The notes under the pieces were generated by a model, which saw only the letters and a list, made by a program, of their open reading frames with translations, did not search any database and was not told where the DNA came from. Made by a program: the position numbers and the translations under genes. Source: a virus (taxonomy: Duplodnaviria > Heunggongvirae > Uroviricota > Caudoviricetes). Taken from it: a stretch of DNA of 4,790 nt. Position 1 is the stretch's first letter; every line of letters starts with the position of its first letter. Below, piece by piece: positions 1 to 4,790 of the stretch. Location: IMG/VR virus record IMGVR_UViG_2529292721_000007, positions 1 through 4,790 of that record; one strand, 5' to 3'.

Positions 1-1
1 G

Positions 2-214
2 GCAGATGATCCGCATCACATCATTGGTCATGGACTGGGAGGGATGGGAACAAAGGCTGATGATTTGTTTGTTATTCCGCTGTGCCGTAAATGCCATAGC
101 GAACTACACGCCGGGGTAAAAGATTTTGAAGAAAAACACGGCAGCCAGCTGTTGTTGCTGATTCGTTTTTTAATGCACGCGAGAAATTCGGGTGTCCTGA
201 AGTGGAAAGCATGA
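2..214 (+). CDS. C-terminal fragment of a DUF968-family (YdfU-like) nin-region protein; 5' end lies outside the window
   Basis: Open frame runs from the window edge to TGA at 212-214. Translation ends ...HHIIGHGLGGMGTKADDLFVIPLCRKCHSELHAGVKDFEEKHGSQLLLLIRFLMHARNSGVLKWKA, with a CxxCH...H motif. Sits immediately upstream of rusA, as in lambdoid nin regions. Family assignment is from memory, not a search. Confidence 0.55.
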   Translation, partial: ADDPHHIIGHGLGGMGTKADDLFVIPLCRKCHSELHAGVKDFEEKHGSQLLLLIRFLMHARNSGVLKWKA

Positions 215-580
215 ATGACTGAACGCATAGAATTTGTTTTGCCTTACCCGCCAACGGTGAACACTTACTGGCGACGTCGTGGCAGCACATATTTTGTATC
301 AAAAGCCGGTGAGCGTTATCGCCGTGATGTGGCGCTTATTGTTCGCCAGCAGCGGCTGAAATTAAACCTGTCCGGAAGGCTGGTGATAAAGATTATTGCA
401 GAGCCACCGGATAAACGTCGTCGTGACCTGGACAATATCCTGAAAGCACCACTGGATGCGCTGACGCATGCCGGACTTCTCATAGACGACGAGCAGTTTG
501 ATGAAATCAATATTGTGCGCGGTCAGCGCGTTCCTGGGGGGCGGCTGGGCGTGAAGATTTACAAAATTGAGAGTGAGTGA
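215..580 (+). CDS. rusA: Crossover junction endodeoxyribonuclease RusA (Holliday junction resolvase)
   Basis: 121-aa ORF whose ATG at 215 directly abuts the upstream stop (TGAATG). Contains RRRDLDN and LIDDEQ acidic motifs matching the RusA Asp active-site pattern. Size and position (before Q) are typical of lambdoid rusA. Confidence 0.85.
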   Translation: MTERIEFVLPYPPTVNTYWRRRGSTYFVSKAGERYRRDVALIVRQQRLKLNLSGRLVIKIIAEPPDKRRRDLDNILKAPLDALTHAGLLIDDEQFDEINIVRGQRVPGGRLGVKIYKIESE

Positions 581-588
581 TCGTAAAT

Positions 589-1131
589 ATGATATACCCG
601 GAAATTACAGGCAAAAGCGGCGAGCATTTACGTCTAAAAACGCTGGAAGCCGTCTGGATCCAGGGGAAATTACGGATGTGGGGGCGTTGGTCGTATATAG
701 GTGGTGGCAAACCAGGAAATATGTTCAATCAGTTGCTGGCATCCAAAAAACTGACAAAAACCGCAATCAATGAAGCCCTGCGTAGAATCAGGGAGTCAGG
801 GATTGATAAACCAGAGCTGGAAGCATTCTTGCGAGAGATGATCGCTGGCAGACAGAAGAGCTGGTTGTCTCACTGTACTGATGCAGAGGCGTTACGCATT
901 GATGGGGTGATAAGTAAAGCGCTTGCACGTTATCCTGGATTGATTGATATCCTGCGGCAAAGGTACGAAGGGCGGGGGATGAGTAAACGCAAAATGGCTG
1001 AATTGTTGAATGAGGTTCACCCTGAGTGGTGCTATGCAACATGCCGCAATCGTATAGATATGTGGCTGAGAATAGCTGAGTTTATTCTGTATCCACTGAT
1101 GCGAGATGCATTTTCTTTTACTGACGCTTAG
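589..1131 (+). CDS. Putative late-gene antiterminator, Q-like
   Basis: Roughly 180-aa ORF overlapping or abutting the rusA stop. Start is ambiguous: ATG at 589 or GTG at 577, both with weak SD, so translational coupling to rusA is likely. Contains LRMWGRW, reminiscent of the WG-W motif in Q-family proteins. Lies immediately upstream of a promoter-terminator interval and late genes, the canonical Q position. Confidence 0.6.
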   Translation: MIYPEITGKSGEHLRLKTLEAVWIQGKLRMWGRWSYIGGGKPGNMFNQLLASKKLTKTAINEALRRIRESGIDKPELEAFLREMIAGRQKSWLSHCTDAEALRIDGVISKALARYPGLIDILRQRYEGRGMSKRKMAELLNEVHPEWCYATCRNRIDMWLRIAEFILYPLMRDAFSFTDA

Positions 1132-1151
1132 AATCTGGAGGGCGTTTGTTG

Positions 1152-1229
1152 TTGCACGAAGAGGATTTTTGGCTGGTAGTAAGGTTTGTGCAGTTTTAGA
1201 AAAAAAGCTTGTATTTTTAGCCATAAACT
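1152..1229 (+). promoter_or_regulatory. Candidate late promoter (pR'-like) and Q-utilisation region
   Basis: AT-rich interval between the Q stop and a strong intrinsic terminator. Candidate hexamers are TTGCAC (1152-1157) with TAGTAA (1177-1182) at a 19-bp spacer, and a TG-TATTTT extended -10-like element at 1210-1217. The exact -35/-10 and start site cannot be fixed by eye. Confidence 0.3.
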
Positions 1230-1293
1230 GTTTCAATCCAGCTACGCTTCGCAAAGCTGTACCGCGAGGCGAATAGCAGACATGGACACCTGA

Positions 1294-1320
1294 AAGAACC
1301 CGCTTTATGCGGGTTTTTTT
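1294..1320 (+). terminator. Rho-independent terminator (tR'-like) ending the short late leader transcript
   Basis: AACCCGC (1297-1303), loop TTTAT, GCGGGTT (1309-1315), followed by a T-run through 1320. Classic GC stem plus U-tract immediately downstream of the Q gene. Confidence 0.8.
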
Positions 1321-1443
1321 ATGCCTGAAAAACGGCACAGAACATTAAACGCGCTGGTAGTTGTGAATACTGGTCTTTCAGCTTGCTGGCTTTTTCGACA
1401 AGAGGTATTGGTATGTCACGTTAACCAGAAAAGGGAAAAAGGC

Positions 1444-1641
1444 ATGCTAAAACAGCAGGATATGACCGAAACCGCCAGAGTGGTGTTTAATGAATTAAGC
1501 GTCACCGAACCGGCGACCGTCGGGGAAATTGCGCAGAATACTTACCTTTCACGCGAACGCTGCCAGTTAATACTGACTCAGCTTGTTATGGCGGGTCTGG
1601 CAGATTATCAGTTCGGTTGTTACAGACGCCTTCCGCAGTGA
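1444..1641 (+). CDS. Small (65-aa) putative winged-helix / HTH DNA-binding protein
   Basis: The six-frame ORF 1321..1641 is trimmed to ATG 1444, which has an AAGGGA SD 7 nt upstream (1431-1436); ATG 1321 sits inside the terminator T-run with no SD. Segment ATVGEIAQNTYLSRERCQLILTQLVMAGL has a helix-turn-helix character. Function unknown. Confidence 0.5.
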   Translation: MLKQQDMTETARVVFNELSVTEPATVGEIAQNTYLSRERCQLILTQLVMAGLADYQFGCYRRLPQ

Positions 1642-1667
1642 AGGCTTTTTAATTTGTGGTAATGGGC

Positions 1668-1698
1668 GGCTGGTGGGTGTTAGCGGCACCTGCCAGCC
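1668..1698 (+). promoter_or_regulatory. Imperfect 12-bp inverted repeat (candidate operator or RNA hairpin) between the HTH gene and the methyltransferase gene
   Basis: GGCTGGTGGGTG (1668-1679), 7-nt spacer TTAGCGG, CACCTGCCAGCC (1687-1698). Ten of 12 positions are Watson-Crick complementary; the other two are adjacent G/T pairs, which would be G-U pairs in RNA. No U-tract follows. Confidence 0.35.
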
Positions 1699-1791
1699 AT
1701 CTGCTCATGCGTTGGGGTCACAAGCAAACCTCAGGCCCATCTGCTTTGCGCAAAAGCGGTATGAGCCTATCAGAGAAGTGCTTATTGATCT

Positions 1792-2841
1792 ATGATTAAT
1801 ACTGTAAAAATATCCAGTTGTGAGTTAATCAACGCTGATTGCCTGGAGTTTATCCAGACCTTACCGGAAAACTCTGTCGATCTGATAGTCACAGACCCGC
1901 CATACTTTAAAGTGAAGCCCGAGGGCTGGGATAACCAGTGGGAGGGCGACGATGATTACCTGAAATGGCTGGACCAGTGTCTGGCGCAGTTCTGGCGGGT
2001 ACTGAAGCCTGCCGGAAGTCTTTACCTGTTCTGTGGTCATCGCCTGGCATCTGACACCGAAATCATGATGCGTGAGCGCTTTAATGTGCTGAACCACATT
2101 ATCTGGGCGAAGCCGTCCGGACGCTGGAACGGGTGCAATAAGGAAAGTCTGCGGGCGTATTTTCCGGCAACAGAGCGCATTCTGTTTGCAGAACATTATC
2201 AGGGACCGTATCGCCCGAAAGATGATGGCTATGTGGCACAGGGGCGCGAGCTAAAACAGCACGTCATGGCCCCGCTGATTTCTTACTTTCGTGATGCGCG
2301 TAAATCACTGGGAATAACGTCAAAACAGATAGCGGAAGCCACCGGAAAGAAAAACATGGCTTCGCACTGGTTTGGTACCAGTCAGTGGCAGTTACCGAAC
2401 GAGGGTGATTACAACAAATTGCAGGCGTTGTTTGCGCGTGTTGCGGCAGAAAAACATCAGCGCGGGGAACTGGAAAAGCCACACCACCAGCTGGTCAGCA
2501 CATACAGTGAGCTGAACCGGCAGTATACGGAACTGCTGAGTGAATATAAAAATTTGCGGCGGTATTTCGGTGTGACGGCGCAGGTTCCGTACACCGATGT
2601 CTGGACGCATAAACCGGTGCAGTACTATCCAGGGAAACATCCGTGCGAAAAACCGGCAGAAATGCTGCAGCAGATAATCAACGCGAGCAGTCGTCCGGGA
2701 GACCTGGTTGCAGATTTTTTTATGGGTTCAGGTTCAACGGTAAAAGCGGCGATGGCACTGGGGCGTTGTGCGATTGGTGTTGAGCTGGAGACCGGACGTT
2801 TTGAACAGACAGTCAGGGAAGTTCAGGATTTAATCGTTTGA
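1792..2841 (+). CDS. Orphan DNA methyltransferase, beta-class (circularly permuted), probably N6-adenine-specific
   Basis: 349-aa ORF. Motif IV DPPY at aa 35-38 (nt 1894-1905) near the N-terminus; AdoMet-binding motif I FMGSGS at aa 310-315 (nt 2719-2736) near the C-terminus, with a long putative target-recognition region between. This IV-then-I order defines beta-class amino-MTases. No restriction endonuclease candidate is adjacent. Confidence 0.85.
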   Translation: MINTVKISSCELINADCLEFIQTLPENSVDLIVTDPPYFKVKPEGWDNQWEGDDDYLKWLDQCLAQFWRVLKPAGSLYLFCGHRLASDTEIMMRERFNVLNHIIWAKPSGRWNGCNKESLRAYFPATERILFAEHYQGPYRPKDDGYVAQGRELKQHVMAPLISYFRDARKSLGITSKQIAEATGKKNMASHWFGTSQWQLPNEGDYNKLQALFARVAAEKHQRGELEKPHHQLVSTYSELNRQYTELLSEYKNLRRYFGVTAQVPYTDVWTHKPVQYYPGKHPCEKPAEMLQQIINASSRPGDLVADFFMGSGSTVKAAMALGRCAIGVELETGRFEQTVREVQDLIV

Positions 2842-2852
2842 AACGGATGAGA

Positions 2853-2881
2853 TTGCAGAATTAATTACGCACCATTATTAT
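2853..2881 (+). promoter_or_regulatory. Candidate sigma70 promoter for the tRNA cluster
   Basis: TTGCAG (2853-2858), 17-bp spacer, TATTAT (2876-2881). The predicted start falls a few nt upstream of the first tRNA 5' end at 2891. Confidence 0.5.
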
Positions 2882-2890
2882 TCTGCTCCC

Positions 2891-2966
2891 GGCCCTTTAG
2901 CTCAGTGGTGAGAGCGAGCGACTCATAATCGCCAGGTCGCTGGTTCAAATCCAGCAAGGGCCACCA
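2891..2966 (+). tRNA. ileZ: tRNA with CAT anticodon, ileX/ileZ-like (tRNA-Ile2, lysidine-type); tRNA-Met cannot be formally excluded from sequence alone
   Basis: Cloverleaf read by hand: acceptor GGCCCTT/AAGGGCC, D-arm GCTC-AGTGGTGA-GAGC, anticodon loop CTCATAA (CAT), T-arm GCTGG-TTCAAAT-CCAGC, discriminator A, encoded CCA. Closely resembles E. coli ileX as recalled. Confidence 0.8.
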
Positions 2967-2973
2967 TCACATA

Positions 2974-3050
2974 CCGCCATTAGCTCATCAGGATAGAGCG
3001 CCAGCCTTCGAAGCTGGTTGCGCGGGGTTCGAGTCCTCGATGGCGGTCCA
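2974..3050 (+). tRNA. argN: tRNA-Arg (anticodon TCG)
   Basis: Acceptor CCGCCAT/ATGGCGG (C1-G72), D-arm GCTC-ATCAGGATA-GAGC, anticodon stem CCAGC/GCTGG with loop CTTCGAA (TCG), T-arm CGGGG-TTCGAGT-CCTCG, discriminator T, encoded CCA. Confidence 0.75.
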
Positions 3051-3063
3051 TTATCTGTACCCT

Positions 3064-3140
3064 GCGTTGTTAGCTCAGCCGGACAGAGCAATTGCCTTCT
3101 AAGCAATCGGTCACTGGTTCGAATCCAGTACAACGCGCCA
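3064..3140 (+). tRNA. argO: tRNA-Arg (anticodon TCT, reads rare AGA/AGG codons)
   Basis: Acceptor GCGTTGT/ACAACGC, D-arm GCTC-AGCCGGACA-GAGC, anticodon stem ATTGC/GCAAT with loop CTTCTAA (TCT), T-arm ACTGG-TTCGAAT-CCAGT, discriminator G, encoded CCA. Confidence 0.8.
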
Positions 3141-3281
3141 CGCTTATTTTTCCAGGCTCGCTACGGCGGGTCTTTTTCATATCCGCGTCACGTCAGGCGC
3201 ACATCAAACAAACACAGAATCTTTCAGGGGGCGGGATAGTCAGTGTGACGTTCTCTGGGGGCCTGTCACTTCCGGGGATAG

Positions 3282-3303
3282 GTGTTTTTACGGGCTGCTG
3301 GTG
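3282..3303 (+). terminator. Weak hairpin plus T-tract just upstream of the lysis-gene RBS (possible attenuator or partial terminator)
   Basis: GGGC (3282-3285), 8-nt loop, GCCC (3294-3297), then TTTTTT (3298-3303). The stem is short, so termination efficiency is probably low. Confidence 0.25.
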
Positions 3304-3332
3304 GCCCTTTTTTATTTACAGGAGAAAGAAGT

Positions 3333-3725
3333 ATGTCTGAACCCTTATCCGGTTCCGGTACGGCTGCGGCGCTCGGCGGGGCGACGGTATTCGGGCTGTT
3401 TACCGGAATGGATTTCGGGATTGTGTTTGGCGCGTTCGCCGGGGCGTTATTTGTGGCAACGATGCCACAGTCACTTTCAGTCTGGCGCGTGGTGGCACAT
3501 TTTCTGGTGTCGTTTATTGTCGGCGTGCTGGGAGCGCGTGTGCTGTCAGCCTGGATTGCATCAAAAACAGGGTATGACGGTACATCAGCAGATGCGCTTT
3601 GCGCGGTGCTGGTCTCGGTGGTGTCGGTGAAGATTCTCTCGTTCATCCACCAGCAGGATATTGCATCGCTGGTGTCCGGTGTGTTCTCCCGCCTGCGGGG
3701 TGGAGGAGGCGGCAATGTTAAGTAA
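3333..3725 (+). CDS. Putative holin or lysis-associated membrane protein (130 aa, Gly/Ala-rich, three or four predicted transmembrane segments)
   Basis: ATG 3333 is preceded by a strong AGGAG SD (3321-3325). Hydrophobic stretches AAALGGATVFGLFTG, IVFGAFAGALFVATM, VVAHFLVSFIVGVLGARVL and ALCAVLVSVVSVKILSFI. First gene of a three-gene overlapped cassette ending in an endolysin. The antisense ORF 3266..3715 is judged spurious. Confidence 0.55.
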   Translation: MSEPLSGSGTAAALGGATVFGLFTGMDFGIVFGAFAGALFVATMPQSLSVWRVVAHFLVSFIVGVLGARVLSAWIASKTGYDGTSADALCAVLVSVVSVKILSFIHQQDIASLVSGVFSRLRGGGGGNVK

Positions 3726-3993
3726 CCTTCCCGGATTGCTGAATGTGGCGTTATGCACGGTTATCGTGCTGACGCTCTTTTTTTATCGTCGTCGTGATTC
3801 CAGACATAAACCGTTGATGTCATGGCTGGCCTGGCTGCTGATGCTGCTTTATGCCTTTGCACCACTCAGTTATCTGTGCGGTCGCCCGTTAGCGGCGAAC
3901 TGGCTGGCGGTGGGGCTTAATCTGCTGTTCTGCGTGTTGGTTATTCGCGCACGCGGGAACGTTTCAAAAATCTTTGTATTACGAAGACGCTGA
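3715..3993 (+). CDS. Second small membrane protein of the lysis cassette (92 aa; holin or antiholin-like)
   Basis: ATG 3715 is preceded by GGAGGAGG (3702-3709), which lies inside the upstream gene's C-terminal codons. Overlaps the upstream gene by 11 nt. Two or three hydrophobic segments (LLNVALCTVIVLTLFFY, LMSWLAWLLMLLYAFAPLSYL, WLAVGLNLLFCVLVI) and a basic tail. Stop TGA 3991-3993 lies 1 nt before the endolysin ATG. Confidence 0.5.
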   Translation: MLSNLPGLLNVALCTVIVLTLFFYRRRDSRHKPLMSWLAWLLMLLYAFAPLSYLCGRPLAANWLAVGLNLLFCVLVIRARGNVSKIFVLRRR

Positions 3994-3994
3994 T

Positions 3995-4540
3995 ATGAAG
4001 TCGAAAGATGAAATTTTTGACGAAGTTCTGGGAAAAGAGGGCGGTTACGTCAATCACCCGGATGATAAAGGCGGACCGACAAAATGGGGTATTACGGAAA
4101 AAGTCGCCCGCGCTCACGGATATCAGGGCGATATGCGTGACCTGACACGCGAACAGGCACTGGAAATCCTTGAGGCGGATTACTGGTTCGGACCACGCTT
4201 TGATCAGGTGGCCGCATTATCCTCTGATATTGCTGCAGAGTTGTGTGATACCGGTGTGAATATGGGGCCGTCCGTAGCATCGAAAATGCTCCAACGCTGG
4301 CTGAACGTTTTCAACCTGCAAGGCAAATTGTTCCCGGATATGGACGCAGACGGGCGTATCGGCCCCCGCACGATTAATGCACTACGGACTTATCTGCAAA
4401 AACGCGGCAAAGACGGCGAACTGGTGATGCTGAAGGCGCTGAATTGCACGCAGGGCGACCGCTATCTGGAGCTGGCAGAAAAACGCGAGGCCAACGAGTC
4501 GTTTGTCTACGGCTGGATGAAAGAGCGCGTAGCAGTTTAA
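3995..4540 (+). CDS. Endolysin: glycoside hydrolase family 108 N-terminal domain with a C-terminal peptidoglycan-binding domain
   Basis: 181 aa from ATG 3995; the six-frame ORF begins at an upstream TTG at 3974. N-terminal LGKEGGYVNHPDDKGGPTKWGIT carries the EGGY signature of GH108 lysozymes. The C-terminal half resembles the PG_binding_3-type module usually fused to GH108. Tightly coupled to the upstream membrane-protein genes. Confidence 0.85.
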   Translation: MKSKDEIFDEVLGKEGGYVNHPDDKGGPTKWGITEKVARAHGYQGDMRDLTREQALEILEADYWFGPRFDQVAALSSDIAAELCDTGVNMGPSVASKMLQRWLNVFNLQGKLFPDMDADGRIGPRTINALRTYLQKRGKDGELVMLKALNCTQGDRYLELAEKREANESFVYGWMKERVAV

Positions 4541-4633
4541 AAACTGACGCTGAAGTGCTGAACACCCTCAACTCACGCAGGCTCTTTTCTGGGGTTACGA
4601 TGAGCGAAAGTAAGGGGTACCGCATCAGATAGC

Positions 4634-4668
4634 AAAAACCCCGGCTGCTGGAACAGTCCGGGGTTTTT
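4634..4668 (+). terminator. Intrinsic terminator downstream of the lysis cassette (possibly bidirectional)
   Basis: A-run 4634-4638, stem CCCCGG (4639-4644) pairing with CCGGGG (4658-4663), loop extendable by CTG/CAG pairing, then TTTTT (4664-4668). Confidence 0.65.
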
Positions 4669-4759
4669 AGTTTTCACGTCAAAGAGGAAATTGTGAGTAG
4701 TGAGTACGGAGAAAATCCTCGTGGGAAAGTATAAAAGATTCTTTTTGAGGTTGTCCATT

Positions 4760-4790
4760 ATGAAAGGTATTGAAATGGAAACTCCCGCGA
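4760..4790 (+). CDS. 5' end of the next ORF (MKGIEMETPA...), function unknown; continues beyond the window
   Basis: ATG 4760 with GAGG (4747-4750) 9 nt upstream. Only 10 codons are visible, so no functional call is possible. Confidence 0.3.
   Translation, partial: MKGIEMETPA

Follow-up and report, generated by a model that had tools for sequence, protein, structure and literature searches.

A phiP27-type lysis cassette and the lipoprotein expected in its Rz/Rz1 position

How might a tailed phage open the outer membrane of its host when its lysis cassette appears to carry no spanin genes? The question is raised by a 4,790-nucleotide (nt) stretch of DNA from a virus of the Caudoviricetes (positions 1 to 4,790 of IMG/VR record IMGVR_UViG_2529292721_000007; hereafter, the window), for which a reading of the sequence alone (the original prediction) had described two overlapping membrane proteins and a glycoside hydrolase family 108 (GH108) endolysin, followed by a terminator and lacking recognizable spanins. 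We consider it rather probable that positions 3333-4540 form the holin–holin–endolysin core of a phiP27-type module in which a small lipoprotein, here called LPP, occupies the slot of Rz/Rz1 and performs or enables outer-membrane disruption. Everything reported beyond position 4790 comes from related loci. On this comparison, the apparent lack of spanin genes is partly true: it seems mostly due to the early end of the window, yet the lineage appears to be without a canonical spanin.

The holin–holin–endolysin core

The core comprises three genes on the plus strand: holin-family protein 1 (3333-3725; 130 amino acids [aa]; Pfam Phage_holin_8, PF16931; PHROG 198), holin-family protein 2 (3715-3993; 92 aa; Pfam Phage_holin_3_7, PF05449; PHROG 217), and the endolysin (3995-4540; 181 aa; Glyco_hydro_108 plus PG_binding_3; PHROG 315). 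Their coordinates and spacing, an 11-nt overlap between the first two genes and then a 1-nt gap, are as originally described. Shine-Dalgarno sequences rated as good lie 7 nt upstream of both holin start codons (AGGAGA before ATG 3333 and GGAGGAGG before ATG 3715), and all three genes are under purifying selection in their own frames, with ratios of nonsynonymous to synonymous polymorphism (pN/pS) of 0.11 to 0.27.

The prediction of a lysis cassette with two different multispanning membrane proteins is borne out by family matches and hydropathy. Protein 1 matches Phage_holin_8 with 82.6 bits (cut-off, 26.4), its residues 1-124 aligning with positions 1-121 of the 121-position model; it has three to four hydrophobic segments (~17-45, 48-76, and 83-107) and a basic C-terminal tail, and across 51 distinct alleles the pN/pS of its gene is 0.175 in frame and >2 out of frame. 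Protein 2 matches Phage_holin_3_7 with 75.7 bits (cut-off, 25.4), has three transmembrane (TM) segments (4-26, 33-56, and 59-80) and a pN/pS of 0.27 in its own frame, and is predicted to adopt an N-out/C-in topology from the basic sequence RDSRHK in loop 1 and its basic C-terminal tail. The maximum Kyte-Doolittle mean over 15 residues is 2.5 for the holins, versus 0.88 for the endolysin. Both proteins thus show the sequence features by which holins are recognized, being small, with at least one TM domain (TMD) and a charged C terminus, adjacent to the endolysin gene, and translationally coupled. They are paired in every locus that we examined, except in the distant LPP cassettes with a single holin. 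Our literature search found no experimental paper on either the Phage_holin_8 or the Phage_holin_3_7 family, and the pair may act as holin and antiholin or as a two-component holin. When checked for a dual-start antiholin motif, the in-frame extension of holin 1 from GTG 3282 passes through terminator-like hairpins, and for holin 2 the extension from GTG is simply the Shine-Dalgarno sequence.

The endolysin carries the two domains originally assigned to it, with scores far above the cut-offs: Glyco_hydro_108 at residues 8-91 (93.0 bits, cut-off 21.2) and the peptidoglycan-binding PG_binding_3 at residues 95-179 (89.9 bits, cut-off 24.6). It aligns end to end with Sen1395 (PDB 6V3Z; phmmer E = 1e-106) and also matches TtsA (PDB 6V40; E = 4e-86), sharing the two-domain architecture of both. 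Its catalytic loop, EGGY...DDKGG...T, is identical to that of Sen1395, and the TtsA triad Glu14/Asp19/Thr28, shifted by +1, places Glu15 and Thr29 in the endolysin (two of the three positions mapped). As predicted, there is no N-terminal signal-anchor; the protein has no hydrophobic segment at all, so it is of the canonical, holin-dependent kind and not of the signal-anchor-release type. Purified Sen1395 hydrolyses ordinary peptidoglycan, and its over-expression halts growth; Sen1395 and TtsA differ in the C-terminal substrate-binding domain, and Sen1395, which degrades ordinary DD-cross-linked murein, cannot substitute for TtsA in toxin export (Geiger et al., 2020, PMC6996933). TtsA is specialized for LD-cross-linked polar murein and toxin export, whereas the window endolysin resembles the phage-type Sen1395. 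By homology, then, the endolysin is a soluble GH108 N-acetylmuramidase that is near-identical to the active Sen1395.

Within the window, nothing resembling an outer-membrane spanin (o-spanin) follows. A six-frame scan of 3300-4790 for lipoboxes returned three chance tetrapeptides, none of them behind a signal peptide; therefore, no o-spanin is encoded in the window. The open reading frame (ORF) embedded at 4444-4632 exists and, as had been stated, has no lipoprotein signal; neither it nor a minus-strand ORF at 4573-4758 matches a Pfam or PHROG family.

LPP and the small membrane protein in related loci

The idea that the cassette ends at its terminator and that the phage is spanin-less finds no support in its relatives: in 39 of 39 related E. 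coli loci, a conserved gene for a small membrane protein and then a lipoprotein gene follow, and this lipoprotein is the listed o-spanin of phiP27 (20706-20861; Kongari et al., 2018, PMC6139136). What holds of the original prediction is that the window itself contains no spanin gene and that the E. coli lineage has neither a canonical Rz/Rz1 pair nor a credible inner-membrane spanin (i-spanin). What does not hold is that the module stops there.

In all 39 loci, LPP is a 60-aa prolipoprotein whose gene begins 1 nt after that of the small membrane protein; its sequence reads M.RKHWTHR.PR...LVAILVPFLLVGC followed by VSLDKARQLFDTASQVCEIVDGVRQCLQN. A pN/pS of 0.30 in its own frame, versus 0.81 and 1.27 in the others, marks it as a real gene, and because position 10 is often not Met, the 60-aa precursor is taken as the true product. 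The lipobox L[VA]GC and its Cys are invariant, and the +2 residue is V, A, or T (never Asp); in a 24-sequence alignment, L34 and K36 are invariant and C48 and C57 nearly so. Processing would yield a 30-residue outer-membrane lipopeptide with two further conserved cysteines, a net charge of about −1 (hence not cationic), and a helical hydrophobic moment of 0.33, a value reached by 6% of shuffled sequences. An AlphaFold2 model built from a 20-sequence alignment is one long helix of low confidence (mean pLDDT, the predicted local distance difference test, of 67). In the related loci, as opposed to inside the window, LPP has the sequence features of an o-spanin: a lipobox without Asp at +2, cysteines, and a position in the cassette either 1 nt after the small membrane protein gene or 0-17 nt after the endolysin stop (or overlapping it).

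How this position is filled was taken from a census of those loci, 78 in all, whose sequence extends at least 1.5 kb past the endolysin gene. The small membrane protein and LPP occur together in 39 loci (10 with a GH108 and 29 with an M15 endolysin), LPP alone in 30 (26 with LPP 17 nt after the M15 stop and 4 phiP27-like), canonical embedded Rz/Rz1 in 3, and neither in 6 (4 prophages carrying heat-labile enterotoxin type II [LT-II] and 2 deletion variants); LPP and Rz/Rz1 are found together in none. The canonical pair whose absence the original prediction asserted is missing from all 39 E. coli loci with the small membrane protein, where LPP stands instead, and is present at the same junction in relatives from Yersinia. 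There, prophages of Yersinia enterocolitica have Phage_holin_8, Phage_holin_3_7, GH108, and the same small membrane protein, followed by an Rz gene (Pfam Phage_lysis; 149 aa) in which an Rz1 lipoprotein is embedded. The junction CG(C/T) TGG TGG TGA T ATG leads to LPP in E. coli and to Rz/Rz1 both in Yersinia (in its CGC form) and in the E. coli locus L062, where an unrelated 45-aa TM protein ending in RWW precedes it. From the identical junction and the lack of any locus with both, we conclude that LPP replaces Rz/Rz1 in the same position.

LPP is not tied to one kind of cassette. A profile search of 1.84 billion representative proteins recovered 23 relatives, most of them lipoproteins 44-71 aa in length that share the cysteine pattern; a few are longer (111-635 aa) and consist of fusions, frameshifted ORFs, or matches of a partial or repeat type. 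The order Phage_holin_8, Phage_holin_3_7, M15, LPP recurs in Salmonella salamae and, with a 6-nt gap, on a metagenomic myovirus-like contig; a Mu-like phage has the same two holins, GH108, and LPP with an ATGA overlap; and the two most distant LPPs follow a single lambda-S-type holin and either M15 or GH108. Given this variety of contexts, LPP is best described as a mobile terminal module of lysis cassettes that is independent of holin, endolysin, and phage backbone. The locus of the most distant homologue (L118, 1036-7189) runs from a Q antiterminator through a lambda-S-type holin, M15, and LPP to an alpha/beta-hydrolase and tail/baseplate genes; no terminase or head genes are in view, and it may be a tailocin-like or degraded element.

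The small membrane protein gene begins inside the window (4721-4790, plus strand) and is cut by its end; the full protein in relatives is MGKYKRFFLRLSIMKGIEMETPASLDLTRAAAFAIRLVAVAVLIWAVRWW. Several starts can be chosen: GTG 4721 (~50 aa), ATG 4760 (37 aa, the choice of most gene callers), or GTG 4700 (57 aa). The 37-aa version (P0124) occurs on at least 1000 contigs. However, the 13 codons upstream of ATG 4760 behave as coding sequence (pN/pS of 0.43 in frame and >1 out of frame; three synonymous and no nonsynonymous changes in Yersinia), so the protein is probably ~50 aa long and starts at GTG 4721; another lineage has ATG at the codon equivalent to GTG 4721. The 13-codon mini-ORF that the original prediction listed is indeed present at 4693-4734, in a different frame, but it overlaps this probable start and is unlikely to be a separate gene. 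The protein has a basic amphipathic N terminus and one C-terminal TM segment followed only by the terminal RWW, and it is predicted to be N-in with essentially no periplasmic domain. It matches only PHROGs of unknown function (PHROG 4493).

Upstream of this gene lies the hairpin at 4634-4668 (AAAAA-CCCCGG...CCGGGG-TTTTT), a real and strong intrinsic terminator, as had been stated (z = −5.2 on the minus strand), which we take to be bidirectional because an A-run precedes the hairpin and a T-run follows it. The ~240-nt block from the terminator to the stop of the small membrane protein gene exists in only two alleles in the 39 loci (L003, 12378-12616), whereas the flanking holin, endolysin, and LPP genes differ by 5 to 15%; the block has the look of an insert that spread recently. 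Facing the terminator from the minus strand is a sigma-70-like promoter (4757-4728; 10 of 12 matches), and the two could give an antisense RNA of ~90 nt. In Rfam, the only match of the block is to the P22 sar RNA and falls below the gathering threshold (minus strand, 4631-4734; 23 bits, threshold 43). Two unrelated TM proteins (L097-L099, 3001-3565; L062, 5466-6072) end in RWW and share the junction TGG TGG TGA T ATG to Rz or LPP; BLASTP detected no homology between the 37/50-aa protein and the 45-aa protein of L062. The shared ending and junction suggest a recombination hot-spot or a conserved translational-coupling signal ahead of the spanin slot.

Outer-membrane disruption and the competing explanations

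By analogy with characterized holin–endolysin systems, the two coupled membrane proteins would accumulate in the inner membrane and permeabilize it at a set time, releasing the soluble GH108 muramidase, which would degrade the murein, an activity known for the near-identical Sen1395. The module would continue past the terminator with the ~50-aa tail-anchored membrane protein (start at 4721 or 4760) and, beyond the window edge, the 60-aa prolipoprotein expected from all 39 related loci. From its place in the Rz/Rz1 slot of sister cassettes, LPP most likely performs or enables the last step, in which the outer membrane is disrupted.

This scheme has the three-step logic and gene order of lambda S-R-Rz/Rz1, with LPP in the Rz/Rz1 slot, and LPP, with its two periplasmic cysteines, is a predicted outer-membrane lipoprotein like PseT.2 of the T4 PseT.3/PseT.2 pair. 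Colicin lysis proteins and the phiKT gp28 disruptin are tiny peptides that compromise the outer membrane yet do not reach across the periplasm, and colicin release proteins are mature lipopeptides of 28-33 residues. LPP has no match to the Pfam Lysis_col family, and the disruptin, a known spanin substitute (bioRxiv 10.1101/515445), is cationic, amphipathic, and akin to antimicrobial peptides and has no lipid anchor, whereas LPP is lipid-anchored with a charge of about −1. Two-component spanins have an inner-membrane type II partner with a periplasmic coiled-coil, and we found no conserved protein of this kind next to LPP; they also total 62-300 periplasmic residues, with 40 or more in the o-spanin, versus the 30 residues of mature LPP. 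A membrane-fusion bridge of the Rz/Rz1 type is therefore unlikely, barring an unlinked partner. The unimolecular T1 spanin gp11 shares with LPP an N-terminal lipoprotein signal and a place at the end of the cassette; unimolecular spanins, however, carry a TMD at the C terminus and lack periplasmic cysteines (Kongari et al., 2018, PMC6139136), whereas LPP ends in the non-hydrophobic ...RQCLQN, and neither a C-terminal TMD nor a long periplasmic domain was seen in the 23 family representatives. As a tentative proposal that we hold to be possible, the LPP family may be a further class of outer-membrane-disrupting lysis protein that works without an inner-membrane partner and stands apart from two-component spanins, unimolecular spanins, and cationic disruptins alike.

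A partner has been proposed for the LPP of phiP27. Kongari et al. (2018, PMC6139136) list this phage as having a two-component spanin of the “separated” kind whose periplasmic length, 62 residues, is the shortest known, its i-spanin being a 64-aa ORF with a TTG start at 20348-20542 of NC_003356. This ORF has no PHROG match, and antisense to it lies a 90-aa ORF whose whole length matches phrog_36812 (in our phiP27 locus, L013, the 90-aa gene occupies 5226-5498 on the minus strand and the i-spanin ORF 5242-5436 on the plus strand). In the relatives L058, L086, and L087, the plus-strand ORF is reduced to 36 aa and has no TMD, with the minus-strand ORF still intact; in every other LPP locus, the i-spanin ORF is missing. 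We therefore reject it as an i-spanin: it is probably an antisense artefact, which would leave the phiP27 LPP without an identified inner-membrane partner. The two holins are no better candidates in general, since the distant LPPs occur with a single lambda-S-type holin.

The remaining candidate is the small membrane protein, which could form a minimal two-component spanin with LPP, the former as a C-terminally anchored i-spanin and the latter as the o-spanin. In 39 loci, the two genes lie side by side with a coupling gap of 1 nt; no cysteine in the membrane protein and two in the lipoprotein is the commonest pattern of spanin pairs, and Kongari et al. suggest that a C-terminally anchored type I protein could serve as an i-spanin (PMC6139136). 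We nevertheless reject this candidate and hold such a pairing to be improbable: the same protein precedes a complete canonical Rz/Rz1 in the Yersinia prophages, where it coexists with a real i-spanin; it is missing from the 30 census loci with LPP alone and from every distant LPP cassette; its TMD lies at the C terminus, and its basic N terminus, with only RWW after the TM segment, implies an N-in protein with essentially no periplasmic domain; and the DNA that encodes it is the nearly invariant block with the appearance of a recent insert. Another reading is a lineage that is truly spanin-less, in which LPP and the small membrane protein would be accessory (masking a receptor or excluding superinfection, like T5 Llp or phi80 Cor, or modulating the timing of lysis) and the outer membrane would fail by shear or through an unlinked factor. 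LPP has no partner and is not long enough to reach across the periplasm, some cassettes have an empty slot, ~13 to 15% of Gram-negative phages (91/677) have no identifiable spanin (Kongari et al., 2018, PMC6139136; bioRxiv 10.1101/515445), and lambdoid phages carry lysis-adjacent lipoprotein morons, with bor next to the cassette in L007, L008, and L011. Yet LPP travels with the endolysin, lying 3-17 nt from its stop or overlapping it, and not with the tail or receptor modules, which vary (lambda-like Nu1/A, Terminase_2, HNH/Terminase_4, and Mu-like), and it excludes Rz/Rz1 at an identical junction; we thus regard a spanin-less lineage as rather unlikely. Most improbable of all is that the cassette is a holin/muramidase device for protein export (TtsA-like, type 10 secretion) that releases a toxin and does not serve lysis. 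The closeness of the endolysin to Sen1395 and to the typhoid-toxin secretion muramidase TtsA, the eltAB genes directly after the same endolysin in LT-II prophages, and stx2e/stx2k a short way ahead of those holins in phiP27 and phiSTEC1575-Stx2k would agree with it, but the window is free of toxin cargo, the cassette occupies the canonical place in the late operon (between Q/tRNAs and terminase) of prophages that appear intact, Sen1395 degrades ordinary DD-cross-linked murein and cannot replace TtsA (PMC6996933), and phiP27 and phiSTEC1575-Stx2k were deposited in GenBank as complete phage genomes.

Returning to LPP as the protein that performs or enables outer-membrane disruption, several points weigh against it. 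Its presence downstream of this particular window is taken from relatives. The census loci are close relatives of one another, not independent, and the six cassettes with neither LPP nor Rz/Rz1 show that, at least among prophages that are defective or carry a toxin, the slot can stand empty. Mature LPP, at 30 residues, cannot bridge the periplasm, and no adjacent type II membrane protein is conserved with it in the related loci or in seven other contexts, where no TM ORF flanks it and its neighbours do not encode membrane proteins. Searches detected no similarity of LPP to Rz1 or Rz and no matches in Pfam (E ≤ 10, and hence none to Lysis_col) or NCBIfam; its match to PHROG 1275, “Rz-like spanin,” has an E value of 0.048 and covers the signal peptide only.

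Known relatives, mosaic origin, and meaning of the module

Judged by its known occurrences, the cassette is an ordinary, already annotated phiP27-type lysis module: at least 80% of it is present in 103 complete E. coli genomes, where it is annotated by RefSeq, and the same two holins occur in the same order in phiP27 (Stx2e), phiSTEC1575-Stx2k, Rac-SA53, and SerU-LTIIb. The phiP27 cassette also follows a methylase and tRNAs; its holins, L28 and L29, overlap in the same order and share 85% and 90% aa identity with those of the window, and an LPP-family lipoprotein (51/60 aa) lies downstream. It differs in its endolysin (L30), an M15 L-Ala-D-Glu peptidase, as also found in phiSTEC1575-Stx2k, in place of the GH108 muramidase, and in having no small membrane protein, with the minus-strand 90-aa gene inserted before its lipoprotein. 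The LT-II prophages Rac-SA53 (KU052037) and SerU-LTIIb (KU052038) have the same holin 1, holin 2, and GH108 endolysin at 80 to 85% nucleotide identity, but their toxin genes, eltIIA/B, come directly after the endolysin, and both the small membrane protein and LPP are missing. AB5 toxin genes flank the cassette in L001, L002, L080, and L081, in L004, and in L013 (phiP27): eltIIA/B after the GH108 endolysin replace the small membrane protein and LPP, and stx2e/stx2k lie just before holin 1. The endolysin is itself also a close relative of the toxin-export muramidase TtsA.

The window appears to place the cassette in the late operon of a lambdoid prophage of the enterotoxigenic E. coli (ETEC) type, where it is preceded by a Q-like antiterminator, a methylase, and three tRNAs. 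Its lambdoid late-regulatory region contains RusA (215-580), a DUF1133/Q-like antiterminator (577-1131), a small helix-turn-helix protein (~1444-1641), and an N6/N4 DNA methyltransferase (1792-2841), and three tRNA genes with the anticodons CAT, TCG, and TCT lie at 2891-3140, between the methylase and the lysis cassette. These tRNAs correspond to the ileZ/argN/argO-like set that precedes stx in Stx phages; in L003, a near-identical locus, RefSeq annotates the CAT tRNA as tRNA-Ile.

The window is a mosaic. Positions 1 to ~3780 match the M15-type ETEC prophage L003 (99.4% identity), ~3781-4750 match the GH108-type L007/L008, and the L003 type resumes from 4756; the breakpoints thus lie near 3780 and 4750, and the L007/L008-type part begins in the 3′ half of holin 2 and ends shortly ahead of ATG 4760. 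The best hits matched as mosaics, with 99.4% identity over 1-3975 and an M15 endolysin or with 96 to 97% over the cassette. Both prophage types are present together in the ETEC strain 120899 (CP025916). Searches with the exact endolysin and methylase proteins did not recover the recombinant, and no genome, metagenome, or viral contig matched its junction-specific pattern; it is either a natural swap of the endolysin module or an assembly chimera.

As a recombinant copy of an annotated module, the cassette of the window adds nothing new in itself; its interest lies in what it leads to. LPP repeatedly takes the place of Rz/Rz1, on lambdoid, Mu-like, and other backbones and with three combinations of holin and endolysin, and never with a credible inner-membrane partner. 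If the antisense reading of the phiP27 i-spanin is true, the “smallest two-component spanin” is an orphan lipoprotein paired with an antisense artefact, and one entry of the reference spanin catalogue would be corrected. The study of phage lysis still asks how phages that lack spanins get through the outer membrane, and the LPP family, which may bear on it, is present in E. coli.

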